The notes below the pieces were generated by a model. That model worked only from the letters and a program-made list of their open reading frames with translations. It searched no databases and was not told the DNA's origin. DNA of 32,000 nucleotides from Halogeometricum borinquense DSM 11551 (GTDB lineage Archaea; Halobacteriota; Halobacteria; Halobacteriales; Haloferacaceae): positions 960,001 through 992,000 of the forward strand of contig NC_014729.1 of NCBI RefSeq assembly GCF_000172995.2, given 5' to 3'. A program made the position numbers and the translations under genes. This document shows positions 10,199-16,741 of the stretch, piece by piece. The first letter of the stretch is position 1; every line of letters starts with the position of its first letter.

Positions 10199-11080
10199 CT
10201 ATTCGGTCGTGACCGTCGTATGGGTATGAACCATCGTCGCACGATGTGTGCCCGTCCCGACTTGGAAATGAATAGTGTGGTCGCCCGGTTCGTACTCGTC
10301 ACCCAACTGTTCTGCGAGGTCGATTCGTCCGCTGGTCGATCCGTCACCGAAGTGCATGTGGCGTGCGTCGGTCGGGATCACCTCGCCGACTGGAACGTGG
10401 TCGGTATCGATGAGCGCGTGGAGATGCCCGGCGTTCGAGTTGATGCCTTCACTAACCGGTTGAATAGTGTAGTTCTCGGCGGTGACATCCCACTCGACGA
10501 CACTGCCATCGACGGTCGTATCGAGACTGAGGCTGGCCTCGTCACGAACCGTTACCTCGACGGTATCAACCAGATCGATCGCTTTGTGCACGCCGTCGCC
10601 GACCTGCAGATGGAGCGTGTGGTCGCCCGGTTCGAGTTCGAGAACACCGTCCGTCTGACCGGTTCCGTAGTGGATGTGCGAGTCGTCTGTGGGAATTATT
10701 TCACCCGGCGTGACGGGGTCGGTGTCAACGAGGATGTGGTAGTGGCCAGCGCCTTCGATTACTTCACCGGCTTTCTCGATCGTGACGCCGTCCGCAGTGG
10801 CCTTCCATTGCACGTACGTACTGGTGAGTTCCGCATCCGAGGACGGCACAGCAAACGAGATGCTAGCGTCGGGGCCGACGCCGTTCATGTACGTCTCGGA
10901 TTCAGTCGTCGTCGCCTCCTGCGTCTCGGTCGGCGTCGCTTGTTCTTCCGTCGTCGTCCCTTCGGTTTCGGTCTCGGTTCCTCCCGACTGGTTTCCGCTA
11001 CAACCGGCGAGACCGACAGCGACTGCGCTTGAAATCGTTCCGACGAACGCCCGTCTGGAAGTGTTATTATAAAGACACAT
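10199..11080 (-). CDS. Tat-exported lipoprotein with two tandem DUF4399-like His-rich domains
   Basis: The N-terminus carries a twin-arginine motif (SRRAFVG) followed by a lipobox (LAGC) and a T/E-rich linker. Two internal repeats share GHYHILVDTD...DDSHIHYGTGQTD...GDHTLHLQVGDGVH and GHLHALIDTD...DARHMHFGDGSTS...GDHTIHFQVGTGTH. Confidence 0.85.
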   Translation of the reverse strand: MCLYNNTSRRAFVGTISSAVAVGLAGCSGNQSGGTETETEGTTTEEQATPTETQEATTTESETYMNGVGPDASISFAVPSSDAELTSTYVQWKATADGVTIEKAGEVIEGAGHYHILVDTDPVTPGEIIPTDDSHIHYGTGQTDGVLELEPGDHTLHLQVGDGVHKAIDLVDTVEVTVRDEASLSLDTTVDGSVVEWDVTAENYTIQPVSEGINSNAGHLHALIDTDHVPVGEVIPTDARHMHFGDGSTSGRIDLAEQLGDEYEPGDHTIHFQVGTGTHRATMVHTHTTVTTE

Positions 11081-11141: not shown

Positions 11142-11894
11142 TCACAACACAAGTCCATCGTCAACGCGCACGACCTCGCCGTTGACGTAGGATGCGGCGT
11201 CGCTGGCCAAAAAGCGGATTACGTCCGCGATTTCCTCGGGTGTGGCAACGCGGCCGCTTGCGGTATCCGTCTCGACGGCCGATTCGTGACCCGATGAGGA
11301 TGCCAGCAAATCGGTGTCGGTGTATCCGGGAGCGACGGCGTTGACGCGGATGTCTTTTCCGCCGAGTTCGCGGGCCGCCGAACGAGTGAGTCCGAGGACG
11401 CCGGCCTTGCTCGCGGCGTAATTCGATTGGCCGGCCCACCCACGCTGGGCGGCGACGCTCGCAACGTTGACGATGCGACCGCCTCGGTCATCGCACCGCA
11501 GCATCTGTTTCGCTGCTTCTCGCGTGCAGTAGAACGTGCCCGTGAGATTCACGTCGATGACGCGCTGCCACCGTTCGGGCGTCATCCGGAGTAACAGACC
11601 GTTGTCCATCACTCCGGCGTTGTTCACGAGAATCGTCGGGTGACCGTACCGCTCGGTAACGGTCTCGAAAGTCGCCGCTACCGCGTCGAAGTCGGCGACA
11701 TCAAACTGTTCGACTGCGGTTTCGGTGGGGAGCGCGGCCAACGCGGCGGCAGTTTGCTCTGCGGCCTCGTCATCGTCGTGATAGGTTGCGACGACGGTCG
11801 CCCCCCGTTCGGCGAGTTGCTCTGCTACTGCACGGCCGATGCCTCGCGTTCCGCCTGTGACGACTGCGACCTCGCCGTCGAAGTCGTCGGTCAC
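11142..11894 (-). CDS. fabG: 3-oxoacyl-[ACP] reductase-like short-chain dehydrogenase (FabG family)
   Basis: TGGTRGIG cofactor motif, NNAG, and SNYAASKAG (YxxxK) with the upstream Ser. 4-nt overlap with fabD. It is the last gene of the acpP operon. Confidence 0.85.
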   Translation of the reverse strand: MTDDFDGEVAVVTGGTRGIGRAVAEQLAERGATVVATYHDDDEAAEQTAAALAALPTETAVEQFDVADFDAVAATFETVTERYGHPTILVNNAGVMDNGLLLRMTPERWQRVIDVNLTGTFYCTREAAKQMLRCDDRGGRIVNVASVAAQRGWAGQSNYAASKAGVLGLTRSAARELGGKDIRVNAVAPGYTDTDLLASSSGHESAVETDTASGRVATPEEIADVIRFLASDAASYVNGEVVRVDDGLVL

Positions 11895-12856
11895 GCAAAC
11901 ACCTCCTGAGCGTTCGCGGGCGTTTCGAGTGTGAGACAGTCGGCGTCCGGCGCGATTCGTTCGACGAGCGTCGATAGCACCCCGGCCGGCGGGAACTCGA
12001 CGAATCGCTCGATGCCCTGTGCGCGAAGTTCTTCGACGACACGGACCCAGTCAACTGCCGACGTAATCTGGTTCGACAGGTCTCGACGGGCGACGCTCGG
12101 CTTCGTGTACACTTCGCCGCTCACGTCGGAGACGACCGGAATATCGGCTTCGCGGAGCGTCACGTCGGCCATCGCCGTTTCGACACAATCGACAGCCGAC
12201 GCCATCACCGGTGAGTGGAACGCCGCACCGACATCGAGTTCGTGGAAGCGAACCGTCGTCCGCTCGTCGAGTCGCTCCTCCACCGCTTTCACTCCCGCAG
12301 TGGTGCCGCTGATGACGGCCTGCTTCGGTGCGTTGTACAGGGCGATACCGACATCCTCCCGGCAGGCACACGCTTTTTCGACCTCGTCTCGGGTAGCCAG
12401 GAGGACAGCAATCATCGTTCCCGGGCCATCAGCCGCGGCCGCCTGCTCCATGCAGTTCCCCCGCTGGTGCGTGAGTTTGGCCGTCTCGGCAGGGGATATC
12501 GCCCCCGCAGCCCCCAGCGCGGTAAAGTGGCCGAGACTGTGGCCGGCGACGAGCGTCGGTTCGACATCGAAACGAGCGGTGACGCCCTCGTAGACCGCGA
12601 GACCGGTCGCCAGTAACACCGGTTGGGTGATACTCGGCTGTTGTAGCTTCTCTGTTGTTCCTTCGAAGCACAACTCCGTGAGGTCGATATCAAGCGCGGA
12701 ATCGAGACGGTCGAACAGCGCACGCGTCTCGGGCCAGTCGTCGTAGAACGCTCGTCCCATACCGACGGTTTGGCTTCCCTGTCCGGGGAAGAGGAACGCT
12801 GTTCCGTCGAGCGTGGATGGTGAATGTTCGGTCGTCATTGTGGTGGTGTGAATCAA
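11891..12856 (-). CDS. fabD: Malonyl-CoA:ACP transacylase (FabD family)
   Basis: FLFPGQGSQTVGMG start motif and GHSLGHFTALGAAG nucleophile elbow. Its length of 321 aa is typical of FabD. It overlaps acpS and fabG by 4 nt each. Confidence 0.9.
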   Translation of the reverse strand: MIHTTTMTTEHSPSTLDGTAFLFPGQGSQTVGMGRAFYDDWPETRALFDRLDSALDIDLTELCFEGTTEKLQQPSITQPVLLATGLAVYEGVTARFDVEPTLVAGHSLGHFTALGAAGAISPAETAKLTHQRGNCMEQAAAADGPGTMIAVLLATRDEVEKACACREDVGIALYNAPKQAVISGTTAGVKAVEERLDERTTVRFHELDVGAAFHSPVMASAVDCVETAMADVTLREADIPVVSDVSGEVYTKPSVARRDLSNQITSAVDWVRVVEELRAQGIERFVEFPPAGVLSTLVERIAPDADCLTLETPANAQEVFA

Positions 12857-13329
12857 ATACGGCGATTAGTGGTTCGTCTCGCTGTACCGACGACAGTCAC
12901 CGATCCGATGGCGTATCCTGCGGTCTGATCGTGGGTCAGACTGACTGCGATGTCGGCAGTCTCGGGCTGGACGTCGCATGCGTCAAGTGTCGCATCGAGC
13001 GCGTCGGATGCGACGGGAGCCAGTGACAGTCGAGGGCCGTCGGGTCGGCGGTCGATTTCGATGGCGGCGGTCGGGACACCGGGTGAGGAACCGGCCAGCG
13101 TCTTCAGGAATGCTTCTTTGGCTGCCCAGCGGGCGGCGTAGTGCTGCGGTGGGTCGCCCTGCGCCTCGCAGTAGGCCTGCTCGGCCGGAGTGAATACTCG
13201 GCCGCGGAACGAATCGCCGAACTCCGCAAGAAGGTCGGCAATGCGGTCGATAGCCACCACATCGACGCCGTGTCTAACTGTGGGGCCAGTGTTTCGAGCG
13301 ACGTCGGGCGCTTCGTCGGACATGGTCAC
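12853..13329 (-). CDS. acpS: Holo-[ACP] synthase (AcpS-type 4'-phosphopantetheinyl transferase)
   Basis: GVDVVAIDRIADLL...FTPAEQAYC......HYAARWAAKEAFLKTLG matches the AcpS family core. It lies between fabF and fabD with 4-nt overlaps. Confidence 0.85.
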   Translation of the reverse strand: MTMSDEAPDVARNTGPTVRHGVDVVAIDRIADLLAEFGDSFRGRVFTPAEQAYCEAQGDPPQHYAARWAAKEAFLKTLAGSSPGVPTAAIEIDRRPDGPRLSLAPVASDALDATLDACDVQPETADIAVSLTHDQTAGYAIGSVTVVGTARRTTNRRI

Positions 13330-14549
13330 GGCTGCTCGAAGACGAGTGCGCCGTTCGTTCCGCCGAACCCGGCCGACGTGCTGACAGCGACGTCAACGTC
13401 CATCGCTCGGGCTTCGGCGACGACCGGCAGATCACAGTCTGAATCGGATGTCTCGTAGTTCATCGTCGGCGGAATCGTTCCCTCGGCAATCGTCTGTGCG
13501 ACGATAGCGGCTTCGATAGCACCGGCGGCCCCGAGTGCGTGTCCGAGGTGGCCCTTGACGCTCGTGGTTGGCGGCACATCCGTCTCCGAGAACACCGTAT
13601 TGAGGGCTTCGGCCTCACGCGCGTCGCCAATCGGTGTGCTCGTCGCGTGCGCGTTAACGTGATCTACGGCGGCCGGGTCTCTGCCAGCGTCCTTCAGCGC
13701 TCGCTCGATACATCGGCGGAGCCCATCTCCCGACTCGGCCGGGCGCGTGACGTGGTGTGCGTCAGCAGATCGGCCTGCACCGGTCACGGCCGCATACGGG
13801 GTCGCGTCACGCTCACGAGCGTGGTCGCGCGATTCCAGGATGACAATACCGCAGCCCTCCGCGAGAACCAACCCGTCTCGGTCGGCGTCGAACGGGCGAC
13901 TCGCCGCGGCAGGGTCGGCAGCGCGAGTGCTGAGCGCCCGCATTGAGTCGAAACTCCCGACGCCGAGCGGCGAGATTGAGGCCTCAGTTCCGCCGGCGAT
14001 GACGACATCGGCGCGTCCGCGCCGAATATCGTCGGCTGCGGCCGCGATGGCGTGGGTGCCCGCCGAACACGCCGTTCCGGGTGCGCGGTTCGGTCCCTTC
14101 GCGCCGACAGCCATACTGACGTGCCCGGCCGCGAGGTTCGTCAACGCGCGTACGAGGAACGACGGGGAGGGACGAGAACCGGCCGCGGCTTCGATCTCCG
14201 AAAGTCCAGCCAGTCCGGAGCCGATGCTGGTTCCCGCGCGTTCCGGTGTCCACGCGGGATCGACGGGATCGAATCCGGCGTCTTCGAGCGCCTCGGCAGC
14301 GGCGGCGACGGCGAACTGCGTGTACCGCCCCATCGTTCGGTCGTCAATGCGGTCGTCGGACGTGTCGGCCGCTGGGTCCGTTCCGATCTCGCATGCGACG
14401 TTGGCGCGTACGTTGGCCTCGTCGGGATCAAACCGCGTTATCGGACCCGCGCCGCTCCGCTCGTCGAGCAGTCCCGCCCACGTGCTGTCGGCTGTCTCTC
14501 CGAGCGCGGTCACCAGACCGATGCCTGTCACGACGACGTCCCGTTCCAT
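13326..14549 (-). CDS. fabF: Beta-ketoacyl-[ACP] synthase II-like condensing enzyme (FabF/KAS II family)
   Basis: VVVTGIGLVTALG, active-site TACSAGTHAI (Cys), NAHATSTPIGD (His), KGHLGHALGAAG (His) and a C-terminal GFGGTNGALVF. The complete Cys-His-His elongating ketosynthase triad is present. Confidence 0.92.
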   Translation of the reverse strand: MERDVVVTGIGLVTALGETADSTWAGLLDERSGAGPITRFDPDEANVRANVACEIGTDPAADTSDDRIDDRTMGRYTQFAVAAAAEALEDAGFDPVDPAWTPERAGTSIGSGLAGLSEIEAAAGSRPSPSFLVRALTNLAAGHVSMAVGAKGPNRAPGTACSAGTHAIAAAADDIRRGRADVVIAGGTEASISPLGVGSFDSMRALSTRAADPAAASRPFDADRDGLVLAEGCGIVILESRDHARERDATPYAAVTGAGRSADAHHVTRPAESGDGLRRCIERALKDAGRDPAAVDHVNAHATSTPIGDAREAEALNTVFSETDVPPTTSVKGHLGHALGAAGAIEAAIVAQTIAEGTIPPTMNYETSDSDCDLPVVAEARAMDVDVAVSTSAGFGGTNGALVFEQP

Positions 14550-14550
14550 G

Positions 14551-14796
14551 TTAGGTCCGCTCGGTGACGTACGCCGTCAGGTCGCCGACCGTCTCTAGCT
14601 CTTCGAGGTCCTCGTCGGGGATGTGGACGCCGACGTCGGCTTCGATGGCCTCGGCGATTTCGACGAGGTCCAGCGAATCGGCATCGAGCGTTTCGCCGTC
14701 GAACGGTGTCTCGGCGTCGAAATCGCCAGTATCGACGCGCAATCGCTCTTCGACGATGCCTTCGATGTGGTCCGTGGTATCTTGGCTATCGGCCAT
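14551..14796 (-). CDS. acpP: Acyl carrier protein
   Basis: 81 aa and very acidic. LDADSLDLVEIAEAIE contains the DSL phosphopantetheine-attachment serine motif in the expected helix II context. Its stop lies 1 nt before the fabF ATG. Confidence 0.88.
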   Translation of the reverse strand: MADSQDTTDHIEGIVEERLRVDTGDFDAETPFDGETLDADSLDLVEIAEAIEADVGVHIPDEDLEELETVGDLTAYVTERT

Positions 14797-14818
14797 GTGC
14801 TGCGGTTCGCTGTCTGTT

Positions 14819-14828
14819 GTAAAAATTG
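14819..14828 (-). promoter_or_regulatory. TATA-like box (CAATTTTTAC on the minus strand) about 26 nt upstream of the acpP ATG. Implies a leaderless acpP-fabF-acpS-fabD-fabG transcript.
   Basis: Seen in the 68-nt gap between the reductase stop (14865) and acpP ATG (14796). The spacing matches archaeal TATA-to-TSS distance. Not verified. Confidence 0.35.
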
Positions 14829-14864
14829 CCCGGTTTCCGTAAGTCTGCGGTAGCTATCACGTTC

Positions 14865-15830
14865 TCAGGGCGTCAGGACCACTTTTCCGACTGTCTCGCG
14901 GTTGGCGAGGGCGTCGTGAGCCTGCTGTGGCTCCGAAAGCGGAACCGTTCGATCAACGACGACTTCGACCTGACCGGACGCGAGATGGTCGATCACGGAC
15001 GGCACAGCTTCGAGTACGCGTTCTGGGACATGGTCGAGCGCGTGTTCGAGATGGTAGCCGATGACGGATTGATTCGCAAAGAACAGTCGCGGTGTCGCCA
15101 CAGTCGGCACTGAGCCGCTCGCCATCCCGAACGTCACGATTCGACCGACTGGCGCGAGTGCCTCGACGCTGGCAGCGAACGCGTTGCCGCCGACGCCGTC
15201 AACGACCAAATCGACACCATCGGTTCGGGACAGGACCGCGTCCGCCACGTCAACGTCCGTGTAGTCGATGGCGTGATCGGCACCGAGGTCTCTGGTGAGT
15301 TCACGCTTTTCGGCGGTACTGGCGGTGGCGAGTACGGTCGCTCCGGCGGCGTCTGCGAACTGGACGGCGAGTGAACCGACGCCCCCTGCTCCAGCATGGA
15401 CCAATACTCGCTCATCCGGTGACAGGTTGCCCCACTCGTGGAGGACGTTGTGGGCGGTCAACCCTTGGACCGGCAGCGCGGTCGCCGCAGCCCATGAGAG
15501 CGATTCCGGGATCCGGAACGTCTGTTCGGCTGGTGCGGTCGCGCGTTCTGCGTACCCCCCGCTCGACGTGAGTGCGGCAACCCGGTCACCGACCGCAAGG
15601 TCGCTCCCGGCTGGAGCGGTCCTGACAGTTCCAGCAACCTCCAATCCGGGGACGAACGGTGGCGACGGGCTATCGGGGTAATTGCCTCTGCGTTGCTCGA
15701 TGTCGGCGAAGTTGACGCCGACGGCCGCGACATCGATGCTGACCTCGCCCTCACTCGGTGTCGGCGCTGGTCGGTCCGTTATCGTCAGAACGGAACTGTC
15801 TCCGTATTCGGTGACTTCGACGGCGCGCAC
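14865..15830 (-). CDS. Zinc-independent MDR-family NADPH oxidoreductase (quinone oxidoreductase / enoyl reductase-like)
   Basis: MRAVEVTEYGDSSVL..., PFVPGLEVAGTV, and the HAGAGGVGSLAVQ Rossmann motif. It lacks the catalytic and structural zinc Cys ligands of ADHs. GTG start lies 2 nt after the stop of the R2-like gene. Confidence 0.8.
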   Translation of the reverse strand: MRAVEVTEYGDSSVLTITDRPAPTPSEGEVSIDVAAVGVNFADIEQRRGNYPDSPSPPFVPGLEVAGTVRTAPAGSDLAVGDRVAALTSSGGYAERATAPAEQTFRIPESLSWAAATALPVQGLTAHNVLHEWGNLSPDERVLVHAGAGGVGSLAVQFADAAGATVLATASTAEKRELTRDLGADHAIDYTDVDVADAVLSRTDGVDLVVDGVGGNAFAASVEALAPVGRIVTFGMASGSVPTVATPRLFFANQSVIGYHLEHALDHVPERVLEAVPSVIDHLASGQVEVVVDRTVPLSEPQQAHDALANRETVGKVVLTP

Positions 15831-15832
15831 GG

Positions 15833-16681
15833 TCAGTTCACCGTCCCATGCTCGGACTCGGCTCCACGAGAGAGTTGCGCCAGTCGGTCACGTCGCTTCC
15901 GAACTGCGAACGCGGTGAGGTCGTCGCTGTCGGGACCGGGGAGGCGTCTCCAACCCATTCGCTCGACAACGGCATCGACCGGTTCTGCGAGCGTCTCGAC
16001 CGTTTCCTCGACGAACGACCGCTCGACTGCTGTACGCTGGAGGAGTTCAGCGAGTTGATTCATGCCGTACCCGACGTGCCGTCCCTCGTCCTGCCGAACG
16101 TGACTGATTCCCTCGACAAGGCCCGGAAGTGACGGTCCGTCCGTCTCCGGGTCGAACGTCGCCTCGATGGCGTGAAACCCGGTCTGACCGAAGACGCCTT
16201 CGACCGTCAGGTGGTAGTGGCAGTACGCGTTGGCGCGGTTGGTTGGCGTATCGTCGTCGAGGAGTTGGTTCATCGCCGTTTCCGTCCGATTGAATATCTC
16301 CTCGTAGGCGGCAGTGAACCATCGGTCGGCCGTCGGATCGGTCGGGTCCAATCCGCGGGCGTCTTCCGCCGGTCTGATGACGTCTTTCCAGTAGCGCTCG
16401 AAGAAGGCGGCATGCTTGGCCTCCTCGTAGATGTGGCTGGCGACGAATCGTTGGTCGGTTTTGTTCGTCGTAGTTGCGGCCAGCGGAACCAGATCTTCGG
16501 TCACGTTCTCCTCGCCCGCGCCGAACATTGCAATCGTCGCGCGTAACTGTGTAAACGCGCTCCGGCCGAGGTCGGAAATCGCCGCTCGGTCGGCAGCCAA
16601 GTCTATCTCGTATGGACTCCAATGGCGCTCGGTCGCGTGCCTGAAGTATCGCTCTGCTCGCCCCCGATTCTCCGCAGACAT
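15833..16681 (-). CDS. R2-like ferritin-fold di-metal carboxylate protein (ribonucleotide reductase small-subunit family, R2lox/R2c-like, no radical Tyr)
   Basis: HWSPYEIDLAADRAAI resembles the R2 N-terminal W-P-E-I-D-L motif. Candidate metal ligands are GEENVTEDL (E), YEEAKHAAFF (ExxH), LTVEGVFGQTGF (E) and RQDEGRHVGYG (ExxH). I chose ATG 16681 as the start; the track ORF starts at GTG 16726. Confidence 0.8.
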   Translation of the reverse strand: MSAENRGRAERYFRHATERHWSPYEIDLAADRAAISDLGRSAFTQLRATIAMFGAGEENVTEDLVPLAATTTNKTDQRFVASHIYEEAKHAAFFERYWKDVIRPAEDARGLDPTDPTADRWFTAAYEEIFNRTETAMNQLLDDDTPTNRANAYCHYHLTVEGVFGQTGFHAIEATFDPETDGPSLPGLVEGISHVRQDEGRHVGYGMNQLAELLQRTAVERSFVEETVETLAEPVDAVVERMGWRRLPGPDSDDLTAFAVRKRRDRLAQLSRGAESEHGTVN

Positions 16682-16741
16682 ATCCGCTCTGTTGGACGCT
16701 CCGGTGAATAAGACTGGCCGTTCCACTCGCTCAGCAGAGCG

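Follow-up and report, generated by a model that had tools for sequence, protein, structure and literature searches.

Within a 32,000 nt stretch of the core chromosome of Halogeometricum borinquense DSM 11551 (NC_014729.1, positions 960,001–992,000; hereafter the window), seven closely spaced open reading frames (ORFs) on the minus strand encode proteins that resemble the machinery of acyl carrier protein (ACP)-dependent acyl-chain synthesis. Read from position 16726 down to 11142, these ORFs specify an R2lox-type di-metal protein, a medium-chain dehydrogenase/reductase (MDR), ACP, a β-ketoacyl-ACP synthase (KS), an AcpS-type holo-ACP synthase, a malonyl-CoA:ACP transacylase (MAT) and a 3-ketoacyl-ACP reductase (KR), and we refer to the set as the cassette (Table 1). 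A ribosomal-protein operon (S3, S4e, L32e, L18, L30) and then SecY lie upstream of it.

The last five genes had been described, in an original prediction made from this DNA alone, as packed with a 1-nt gap and 4-nt overlaps, and the ORF coordinates bear this out. The KR/MAT, MAT/AcpS and AcpS/KS genes each overlap by 4 nt, and the KS-ACP gap is 1 nt; further upstream, ACP and MDR are separated by 68 nt and MDR and R2lox by 2 nt. The arrangement from ACP to KR is that of translationally coupled genes. The R2lox-type ORF opens with GTG at 16726, position 16681 being an internal ATG that gives the annotated 282-aa H. borinquense protein. The predicted TATA-like box was also found, as the element TTTTTA within the 68-nt spacer, 23 nt 5' of the ACP ATG (14825–14820). 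It may serve as an internal promoter from which ACP-KS-AcpS-MAT-KR is transcribed without a leader, its spacing being suited to haloarchaeal leaderless mRNA. The encoded proteins are acidic (pI 4.5–5.0), and G+C at third codon positions (GC3, 0.72–0.74) is like that of neighbouring genes; overall G+C is 0.62–0.67 in the cluster, compared with 0.56–0.65 in the remainder of the window.

Table 1. Coordinates of the cassette genes and of the putative internal promoter element, numbered from the first nucleotide of the window
Feature	Position	Strand	Basis of assignment
FabG-like NADPH 3-ketoacyl-ACP reductase (KR; short-chain dehydrogenase/reductase, SDR; 250 aa)	11142..11894	-	Pfam, NCBIfam, motifs
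Malonyl-CoA:ACP transacylase (MAT, FabD-like; 321 aa from TTG start)	11891..12856	-	Pfam, NCBIfam, motifs
AcpS-type holo-ACP synthase (158 aa)	12853..13329	-	Pfam, TIGR00556, motifs
FabF-like β-ketoacyl-ACP synthase (KS, 407 aa)	13326..14549	-	Pfam, NCBIfam, PDB, motifs
Acyl carrier protein (ACP, 81 aa), predicted phosphopantetheine site Ser41 in DSL	14551..14796	-	Pfam PP-binding, motif
TATA-like element TTTTTA	14820..14825	-	Sequence reading
Zinc-less MDR reductase (QOR/zeta-crystallin/PIG3-like, 321 aa)	14865..15830	-	Pfam, NCBIfam, PDB
R2lox-type di-metal protein	15833..16726	-	Pfam, NCBIfam, PDB, ligand residues

Family assignment relied on Pfam gathering scores and on NCBIfam equivalog and subfamily cutoffs. 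All seven proteins exceeded the Pfam gathering score for the families originally named and carry the expected catalytic residues, so that every family assignment holds. The nearest NCBIfam families are FabG, FabD, AcpS, FabF, AcpP, PIG3-type quinone oxidoreductase and R2lox, with most scores falling somewhat below the equivalog cutoffs. The KS gave strong matches to both halves of the ketoacyl synthase fold (Pfam ketoacyl-synt N, 3.1e-51; C, 1.7e-32) and passed the KAS II subfamily model NF005589 (428.6 against a cutoff of 387), whilst remaining below the TIGR03150 equivalog cutoff (443 against 494). Its best PDB match is Thermus thermophilus FabF (1j3n, 1.9e-97), aligned end-to-end with the Cys-His-His triad in register. 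Cys161, His301, Lys332 and Phe395 are present in 94/94 haloarchaeal homologues, and His266 in 91/94. This FabF-like protein with its active-site Cys is the sole KS of the cassette. The ACP matches Pfam PP-binding (4e-13), and its top NCBIfam matches are all acyl carrier protein models, scored below their cutoffs (62.7 against 71); Ser41, in the DSL motif, is kept in 17/17 haloarchaeal ACP copies. Neither a thiolase in place of the KS nor a carrier lacking the modifiable Ser, either of which would have spoken against the original prediction, was encountered.

The steps of carrier loading and ketoreduction are similarly well represented. AcpS (Pfam ACPS, 4.7e-14) passed the phosphopantetheinyl transferase (PPTase) domain model TIGR00556 (55.7 against 45.35), keeps Asp23/Glu72/His133 in 15/15 loci, and carries a haloarchaeal N-terminal extension and an internal insertion. 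MAT (Pfam Acyl_transf_1, 5e-42) scored 245.8 bits against the TIGR00128 fabD model, slightly under the cutoff of 260.9. Its GHS107LG, Arg132 and AAFH motif (His214) are invariant in 14/14 loci, and the AAFH motif suggests malonyl specificity; the true start of the protein may be a Met downstream of the TTG codon. KR (Pfam adh_short_C2, 1.2e-67) scored 261 bits against TIGR01830, below the cutoff of 298, and passed the FabG subfamily model NF009466 (237 against 222), with the TGGTRGIG motif and Ser146/Tyr159/Lys163 kept in 14/14 haloarchaeal loci. Every step from apo-ACP to 3-hydroxyacyl-ACP (AcpS, MAT, KS and KR) is encoded. On balance, we think it probable that the cassette is a functional ACP-dependent, malonyl-CoA-fed acyl-chain synthase of bacterial ancestry that entered the haloarchaea once and works as a mitochondrial-style minimal fatty acid synthase (FAS) of type II.

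Because pairwise dN/dS against three other genomes lies between 0.08 and 0.28 in all seven genes (0.11–0.17 for the KR gene), we conclude that these are working genes under purifying selection. This conclusion bears on the suggestion that the genes are evolutionary relics or have been misannotated, being paralogues that have ceased to act with a carrier protein. Decayed copies do occur, namely a truncated KS with MDR/KR remnants on plasmid 2 of Haloarcula sp. JP-L23, a KS fragment in Haloterrigena turkmenica and a split R2lox gene in Natrinema, and one lineage retains only ACP-KS-AcpS. The dN/dS values nevertheless speak against decay, as does the invariance of active-site residues in 94 KS, ~90 AcpS and 120 R2lox sequences (KS His266 excepted, as above). 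We therefore regard relic status as very improbable, and it is excluded for the window copy, which has seven intact ORFs, every catalytic residue and preserved coupling through 4-nt overlaps.

The cassette is not peculiar to this genome. The order ACP-KS-AcpS-MAT-KR was found in at least 18 haloarchaeal genera, among them that of Haloferax mediterranei, a model organism (plasmid pHM500), and a synteny survey across Halobacteria showed it to be common to the neighbourhoods of ~20 distinct loci, apart from the split and reduced exceptions described below. KS homologues at 50–86% identity occur in many haloarchaeal genera. For AcpS, ~90 haloarchaeal clusters at ≥47% identity are followed by an abrupt fall to 124-aa bacterial AcpS proteins at ~40%. 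In contrast, the 78 bacterial fabF loci that we compared have either the order fabD-fabG-acpP-fabF or a stand-alone fabF, with acpS adjacent in none. The genes flanking the cassette differ in every genus, all plasmid matches (9/9) are on haloarchaeal megaplasmids (including pHM500, H. turkmenica pHTUR01 and a Natronorubrum bangense plasmid), and three copies, one of which has decayed, occur in Haloarcula sp. JP-L23. The cassette is a conserved, mobile haloarchaeal family, patchily kept and often carried on megaplasmids.

In a tree of 206 KS sequences, the 104 haloarchaeal members formed one clade, with no bacterial locus within it and no identifiable bacterial sister. This is a rough neighbour-joining tree (Kimura distances, midpoint root, no support values) in which the composition bias of acidic proteomes could inflate haloarchaeal monophyly, and a bacterial donor is not resolvable from it; of the ancestry that phylogeny was expected to reveal, it recovers the single haloarchaeal group and not the source. 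The topology inside the clade cuts across haloarchaeal families. On the simplest history, haloarchaea would have acquired the cassette from Bacteria once, long ago, after which it diversified, underwent losses and was passed between haloarchaeal lineages on plasmids. The expectation that the cluster is adapted and no recent arrival is upheld by the acidic proteins, host-like GC3 and dN/dS values, and by a haloarchaeal clade that has diverged to ~50% identity.

An accessory, plasmid-borne and patchy distribution would also be explained if the product of the cassette were not bulk fatty acid but a specialised metabolite: a signal of small polyketide-like or modified-lipid type, a surfactant, or a protein or lipid acyl modifier. 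The megaplasmid sites, the three copies in one strain, the variable accessory genes (R2lox, ferredoxin, aldehyde dehydrogenase, crotonase) and the scores under the equivalog cutoffs for housekeeping Fab proteins fit such a role. KR also scores well on the flexirubin FlxB model and KS on the cispentacin AmcF model, both below cutoff. However, the best matches are to plain FabF, FabD, FabG and AcpP and not to polyketide synthase (PKS) families. No cyclase, aromatase, thioesterase, methyltransferase, nonribosomal peptide synthetase or acyltransferase recurs in the related loci. The small polyketide that had been among the candidate products lacks its hallmarks, there being a single active KS and neither a chain-length factor (CLF) nor a cyclase. 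We consider a specialised product rather unlikely.

Several loci depart from the common gene order. On a plasmid of Natrinema sp. SYSU A 869 (L096:9450-11141), MAT and KR are fused in a 563-aa protein (Acyl_transf_1, residues 6–284; adh_short, residues 325–513) that is annotated only as 'FabG'; the fusion argues for functional coupling of the two activities. At the same locus the R2lox gene is split into two fragments. In Haloarculaceae archaeon H-GB2-1 (L086/L087) the cassette is reduced to ACP-KS-AcpS, after which comes the gene for a CCA-adding enzyme; MAT, KR and MDR are absent within 10 kb. This reduced form is a remnant or else depends on partners recruited from other sites. Four metagenome contigs (L108, L112, L116 and L117; G+C 0.44–0.69) hold an intermediate group of AcpS genes, 38–43% identical, with a convergent SDR directly downstream and no KS or ACP nearby. 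An aldehyde dehydrogenase was considered as a conserved partner and rejected, as it was seen at only two loci (L082 and L083).

In H. turkmenica pHTUR01 (L093) and Haloterrigena sp. KLK7 (L098) the cassette is arranged as the divergent operons [R2lox-MDR-ACP'-KR] and [ACP-KS-AcpS-MAT], with two ACPs. Both loci then continue IclR-ilvA-gcvT-gcvH-gcvPA-gcvPB-glyA, and an IclR-ilvA-gcv block also flanks the decayed cassette copy on Haloarcula sp. JP-L23 plasmid 2 (L094). This proximity to glycine-cleavage genes raises the question of whether the key product is octanoyl-ACP or octanoate for lipoylation of GcvH and 2-oxoacid dehydrogenase E2, as in mitochondrial type II FAS, whose minimal architecture, one KS plus a reductase of the MDR family, the cassette shares. 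The source of octanoate for archaeal lipoylation is acknowledged to be open (PMC10332631). We rejected the gcv adjacency as general evidence for lipoate synthesis, since it reflects a single shared IclR-ilvA-gcv block that is absent elsewhere and not independent recurrence. In a published GTDB survey of Halobacteriota, 347 genomes combine LipA with Lpl and 0 combine it with LipB or LipM. No transferase for octanoyl-ACP is therefore known from this phylum, and the octanoyl-ACP candidate of the original prediction is weakened. The survey lists H. borinquense with Lpl and LipA only. Its lipoate-gene rows are identical to those of Hfx. mediterranei and of Haloferax volcanii, which gave no hit in the KS or AcpS searches. 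Furthermore, no thioesterase is linked that could free octanoate for LplA, and the cassette is patchy whereas LipA and Lpl are widespread in Halobacteriota. We judge a lipoate-directed pathway to be quite unlikely.

In the complete fatty acid synthase reading, the MDR would be the enoyl reductase. It matches Pfam ADH_zinc_N (6.9e-27), ADH_N (2.5e-15) and ADH_zinc_N_2, and lacks the catalytic-zinc His, all cassette-linked copies reading GLE for GHE; this refines the MDR assignment of the original prediction, which had correctly placed an MDR and an R2-like protein immediately upstream on the same strand. Assessed as a quinone oxidoreductase (QOR) of the PIG3/zeta-crystallin type, it scored 282.9 bits against TIGR02824, under the cutoff of 296.8, and its best PDB match is Mycobacterium tuberculosis Qor (9e-55, 189 bits). 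The enoyl reductase (ER) domains of FAS and PKS enzymes scored 112–125 bits, the Pks2 ER region was matched at 8e-40, and human MECR scored 74 bits. PGAP names the homologues 'NADPH:quinone oxidoreductase family protein'. The MDR is linked to the core in 17 of ~20 loci, where it lies directly upstream, downstream and convergent, upstream and divergent, or a few kb off. Because the linkage persists across these four different arrangements, it argues for a functional tie and not for hitch-hiking. The MDR is a candidate trans-acting enoyl-thioester reductase. MDR-type enoyl reductases are used by mitochondrial FAS II and by the archaeal CoA-dependent FAS (10.1101/2024.07.05.601840).

We propose the following pathway. 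AcpS would move 4'-phosphopantetheine from CoA onto Ser41 of the ACP, and the FabD-like MAT would load malonate from malonyl-CoA. We infer that priming, through decarboxylation of malonyl-ACP to acetyl-ACP, and elongation both fall to the single FabF-like KS; mitochondrial KAS and FabF can prime in this way. The FabG-like SDR would reduce the 3-keto group with NADPH, dehydration would occur in trans through a host CoA-type hydratase (MaoC or crotonase), and the zinc-less MDR would reduce the enoyl thioester. The product would be a medium- or long-chain acyl-ACP which, in the subclade that includes the window, the putatively co-transcribed R2lox may oxidize (by hydroxylation or desaturation) or bind. 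Since a zinc-less MDR related to ER domains is persistently linked, full reduction is the most economical reading. We give roughly even odds to a complete FAS-like cycle in which the MDR serves as enoyl reductase.

The description of the pathway as self-contained was overstated. Neither a FabZ/FabA dehydratase, nor a priming KS (FabH), second KS or thiolase-fold gene, was found in the window or conserved across the ~20 related loci; FabI-type reductase, thioesterase, acyltransferase, LipB and PlsX/Y/C genes are likewise absent from the window and not recurrent in those loci. The cassette contains no FabI/FabK/FabL/FabV-type reductase, second SDR or FMN gene, the zinc-less MDR occupying the linked position. 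Dehydratase candidates lie beside the cassette in two lineages only. In the hypersaline metagenomic contigs L105 (8852–9628) and L106 (7161–7934), a crotonase gene (ECH_1, 5e-43) directly follows KR on the same strand, giving the order MDR-ACP-KS-AcpS-MAT-KR-ECH. No other lineage places a candidate dehydratase within the operon, and the crotonase was rejected as a general dehydratase because it is confined to these contigs. In Hfx. mediterranei, a CBS-MaoC hydratase gene, probably PhaJ5/HFX_6433, lies 5 kb from the cassette; deletion of PhaJ5/HFX_6433 gave no polyhydroxyalkanoate (PHA) phenotype. We also rejected the idea that the CBS protein upstream of the H. borinquense cassette hides a dehydratase. 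The C-terminus of this protein resembles ParB/Spo0J (DGHHR) and has no hotdog match; its relationship to the Hfx. mediterranei CBS-MaoC extends no further than the generic CBS pair.

The lack of a conserved dehydratase, taken with KS and KR being the only universally conserved enzymes, allows that the cassette halts at ketoreduction and supplies (R)-3-hydroxyacyl-ACP (for example 3-hydroxybutyryl-ACP or longer) to hydroxy-acid or PHA metabolism, the MDR having another role. FabG-type reductases yield the (R)-3-hydroxy stereochemistry used by PHA synthases, and both H. borinquense and Hfx. mediterranei are PHA producers. The Hfx. mediterranei cassette lies ~2 kb from a phaC paralogue and near the MaoC protein 'PhaJ5'. 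However, the phaC adjacency occurs in one genome only, no PhaG-like transacylase or thioesterase is linked, and CoA-dependent PhaA/PhaB already account for haloarchaeal PHA. Complete reduction, yielding long chains, accords better with the strong linkage of the MDR and with that of R2lox, a binder of long-chain fatty acids, and we consider a stop at the 3-hydroxyacyl stage unlikely. The Hfx. mediterranei island on pHM500 (L089/L099; NC_017944.1, ~426.7–438.3 kb) holds the seven-gene cassette with the phaC paralogue, a GAF regulator and the CBS-MaoC gene, as well as a gene for pantetheine-phosphate adenylyltransferase, an enzyme of CoA synthesis.

Several observations weigh against the mitochondrial-style synthase that we prefer. 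If no dehydratase acts, nothing beyond 3-hydroxyacyl-ACP can be made and the MDR is left without an enoyl substrate, and in none of the related loci is FabH, a thioesterase, an acyltransferase or another acyl-ACP consumer linked. The MDR is nearer to quinone oxidoreductases than to proven enoyl-thioester reductases such as MECR, and is absent from three loci. KS, MAT, KR and ACP all score under the NCBIfam equivalog cutoffs for FabF, FabD, FabG and AcpP. Finally, H. volcanii makes fatty acids de novo (10.1101/2024.07.05.601840) and gave no match in the KS or AcpS homologue searches, so the cassette is not needed for basal haloarchaeal fatty-acid supply.

The R2-like protein reaches Pfam Ribonuc_red_sm (4.3e-10), and among NCBIfam models it matches only those for R2lox (best E 2.2e-34), all below cutoff; the best model, NF006200, scored 119.2 bits against a cutoff of 194. 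All 15 of its 15 PDB matches are R2lox proteins: GkR2loxI (4hr0) and variant entries, SaR2loxI/II, SeR2lox and MtR2lox. The metal ligands E72/E102/H105/E176/E214/H217 align with E69/E102/H105/E167/E202/H205 of GkR2loxI, and the six ligands, like the cross-link pair Val75/Tyr171, are invariant in 120/120 haloarchaeal homologues. Phe109, four residues past His105, occupies the position of the radical Tyr of ribonucleotide reductase (RNR), as read from the sequence. These features place the protein in a divergent haloarchaeal branch of R2lox, and from homology to 4hr0, 3ee4 and 7qbp we infer a hydrophobic channel that would accommodate a long-chain fatty acid at the metal site. Homologues in public records are called 'ribonucleoside-diphosphate reductase (subunit beta)' with a deoxyribonucleotide-biosynthesis Gene Ontology (GO) term, and GO:0009245 ('lipid A biosynthetic process') is attached to several archaeal ACPs. 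Both the RNR name and the lipid A term are likely to be annotation carry-over errors.

R2lox stands beside the cassette at 10 loci; together these make up a shallow, derived subclade to which the window belongs. Most other haloarchaeal R2lox genes (42–55% identity) are stand-alone. R2lox is an accessory of one subclade and lies outside the universal core. R2lox proteins hold C16–C18 (hydroxy) fatty acids at the metal site, and no function or partner has been established for them (PMC9314684). The R2lox literature cites ferredoxin and sterol-carrier neighbours and induction by hexadecane; no mention of an MDR and ACP/KS cassette context was found in the R2lox literature that we examined. Because R2lox appears translationally coupled to the synthase and its relatives bind such fatty acids, the arrangement suggests that R2lox tailors the synthase product. 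On the N. bangense plasmid, the gene directly upstream of R2lox-MDR-ACP-KS-AcpS-MAT-KR encodes a 2Fe-2S ferredoxin (L095:4865-5200), and a gene of the geranylgeranyl reductase family is divergent from it; this ferredoxin could plausibly donate electrons to R2lox. The idea that R2lox and MDR form an alkane-to-acid oxidation pair is disfavoured, as the MDR has no zinc ligands and stand-alone haloarchaeal R2lox genes have no adjoining MDR. We speculate, tentatively and with more doubt than conviction, that the cassette is the first ACP-dependent FAS native to Archaea, operating beside an ACP-independent route, and that the physiological partner of R2lox is the adjacent synthase, whose acyl-ACP or fatty acid R2lox would hydroxylate or desaturate with ferredoxin as the electron source.

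Three neighbouring features of the window deserve mention. A gene encoding a CBS pair fused to the ParB/Spo0J-like C-terminal part (LIPTQ...DGHHR; 16742–17545, minus strand) ends 15 nt upstream of the R2lox GTG, and because only 15 nt separate the two it may be co-transcribed with R2lox; it was not beside the cassette in the other genomes compared. Directly downstream of KR, a DUF4399 protein (two repeats, 1.2e-38; 10199–11080, minus strand) is a predicted Tat-exported lipoprotein, since its N-terminus reads as a twin-arginine signal with a lipobox (SRRAFV...LAGC); this gene, too, is not kept next to the cassette in the other genomes compared. Finally, a GC-rich stretch of ~416 nt (17735–18150), adjoining a very AT-rich tract of 180 nt (17546–17730), contains only ORFs for Arg-rich, high-pI products with no Pfam match. 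It folds far more stably than dinucleotide shuffles (z = -4.2 and -5.5 on the two strands). Scans for Rfam families (E≤1) and for tRNAs gave no match in the stretch, nor in the rest of the window. The stretch may represent a structured RNA that is as yet unclassified, or else an intergenic element rich in hairpins.

The original prediction also stated that ACP and its synthase are generally missing from archaea, save for sporadic horizontal acquisitions, and this matches the literature (PMC3533463; 10.1101/2024.07.05.601840). Only a few unrelated archaea are recorded as having gained ACP, ACP synthase and malonyl-CoA:ACP transacylase by horizontal gene transfer (PMC3533463), and archaea are still taken to be without ACP in recent work (10.1101/2024.07.05.601840; PMC10332631). 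The cassette genes are routinely annotated by PGAP, and our literature searches found no functional work on the cluster, including under the inferred old tags HFX_6421-6426. Nor did we find a paper describing the conservation, order, monophyly, megaplasmid mobility, MDR/R2lox partners or function of the cassette, the species lists of Lombard 2012 and Dibrova 2014 lying outside this comparison. A sizeable and coherent haloarchaeal group, of at least 18 genera, keeps an intact, selected carrier-protein chain-building module with its own architecture. As the genetically tractable Hfx. mediterranei carries the cassette, there is experimental leverage: ACP-dependent acyl synthesis, and the use of its product in a cell with ether-isoprenoid membranes, become testable in a cultivable archaeon, as does the physiological substrate or partner of R2lox, a family of unassigned function for which several crystal structures exist. 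If the speculative reading given above is true, the seven-gene form would reveal the long-sought partner of R2lox. The database labels 'ribonucleoside-diphosphate reductase' for R2lox and 'lipid A biosynthetic process' for archaeal ACPs can also be corrected.

Among known systems, the cassette is like bacterial type II FAS, to whose families its core proteins have their best sequence matches. Both have a separate ACP whose serine lies in a DSL motif, a PPTase of the AcpS type, a malonyl transacylase with GHSLG, a FabF-like KS with a Cys-His-His triad and a FabG-like KR with Ser-Tyr-Lys. The cassette differs in gene order, the ACP-KS-AcpS-MAT-KR arrangement with embedded acpS being found in 0/78 bacterial fabF loci; in the absence of FabH, FabZ/FabA and FabI/K/L/V, with an MDR in place of the enoyl reductase; in scores under the equivalog cutoffs; and in belonging to an archaeal host with isoprenoid ether membranes and no linked PlsX/Y/C. 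The FAS of Sulfolobus acidocaldarius (thiolase/DUF35, SDR, MaoC and MDR; 10.1101/2024.07.05.601840) resembles the cassette in its SDR and MDR, MaoC-type dehydration being only proposed here. In contrast, that system is CoA-based, relies on a non-decarboxylating thiolase and does without ACP, PPTase and malonyl transacylase, whereas the cassette is ACP- and malonyl-based; the same study reports no close homologues of the S. acidocaldarius FAS in Halobacteriales.

Type II PKS (KS-alpha, CLF and ACP) shares with the cassette a discrete ACP and KS, a malonyl transacylase and a ketoreductase. Unlike such systems, the cassette has one KS, with an active Cys, its best matches are to FAS families, and no CLF, cyclase or aromatase was found in the window or related loci. 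As for R2lox, the window protein has the six Mn/Fe ligands, the Val-Tyr cross-link residues and Phe at the RNR radical-Tyr site that characterize the family, and departs from it in scoring under the NCBIfam R2lox cutoffs and in being coupled to an MDR and an ACP/KS cassette.

The remaining comparison is with mitochondrial type II FAS, which comprises ACP, PPTase, MCAT, a single KAS, KR, HTD2 and MECR. The cassette MDR scores as more QOR/PIG3-like than MECR-like (74 bits for MECR against 189 for QOR), the cassette KS is no nearer to mitochondrial KAS than to bacterial FabF, and Halobacteria have neither LipB nor LipM as a consumer. The likeness, as we propose it, lies in a single FabF-type KS that would prime and elongate without KAS III, in an enoyl reductase drawn from the MDR superfamily and in a non-FabZ hydratase encoded elsewhere. 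Like mitochondrial FAS II, the cassette would be an auxiliary pathway in a setting where the bulk lipids come by another route.

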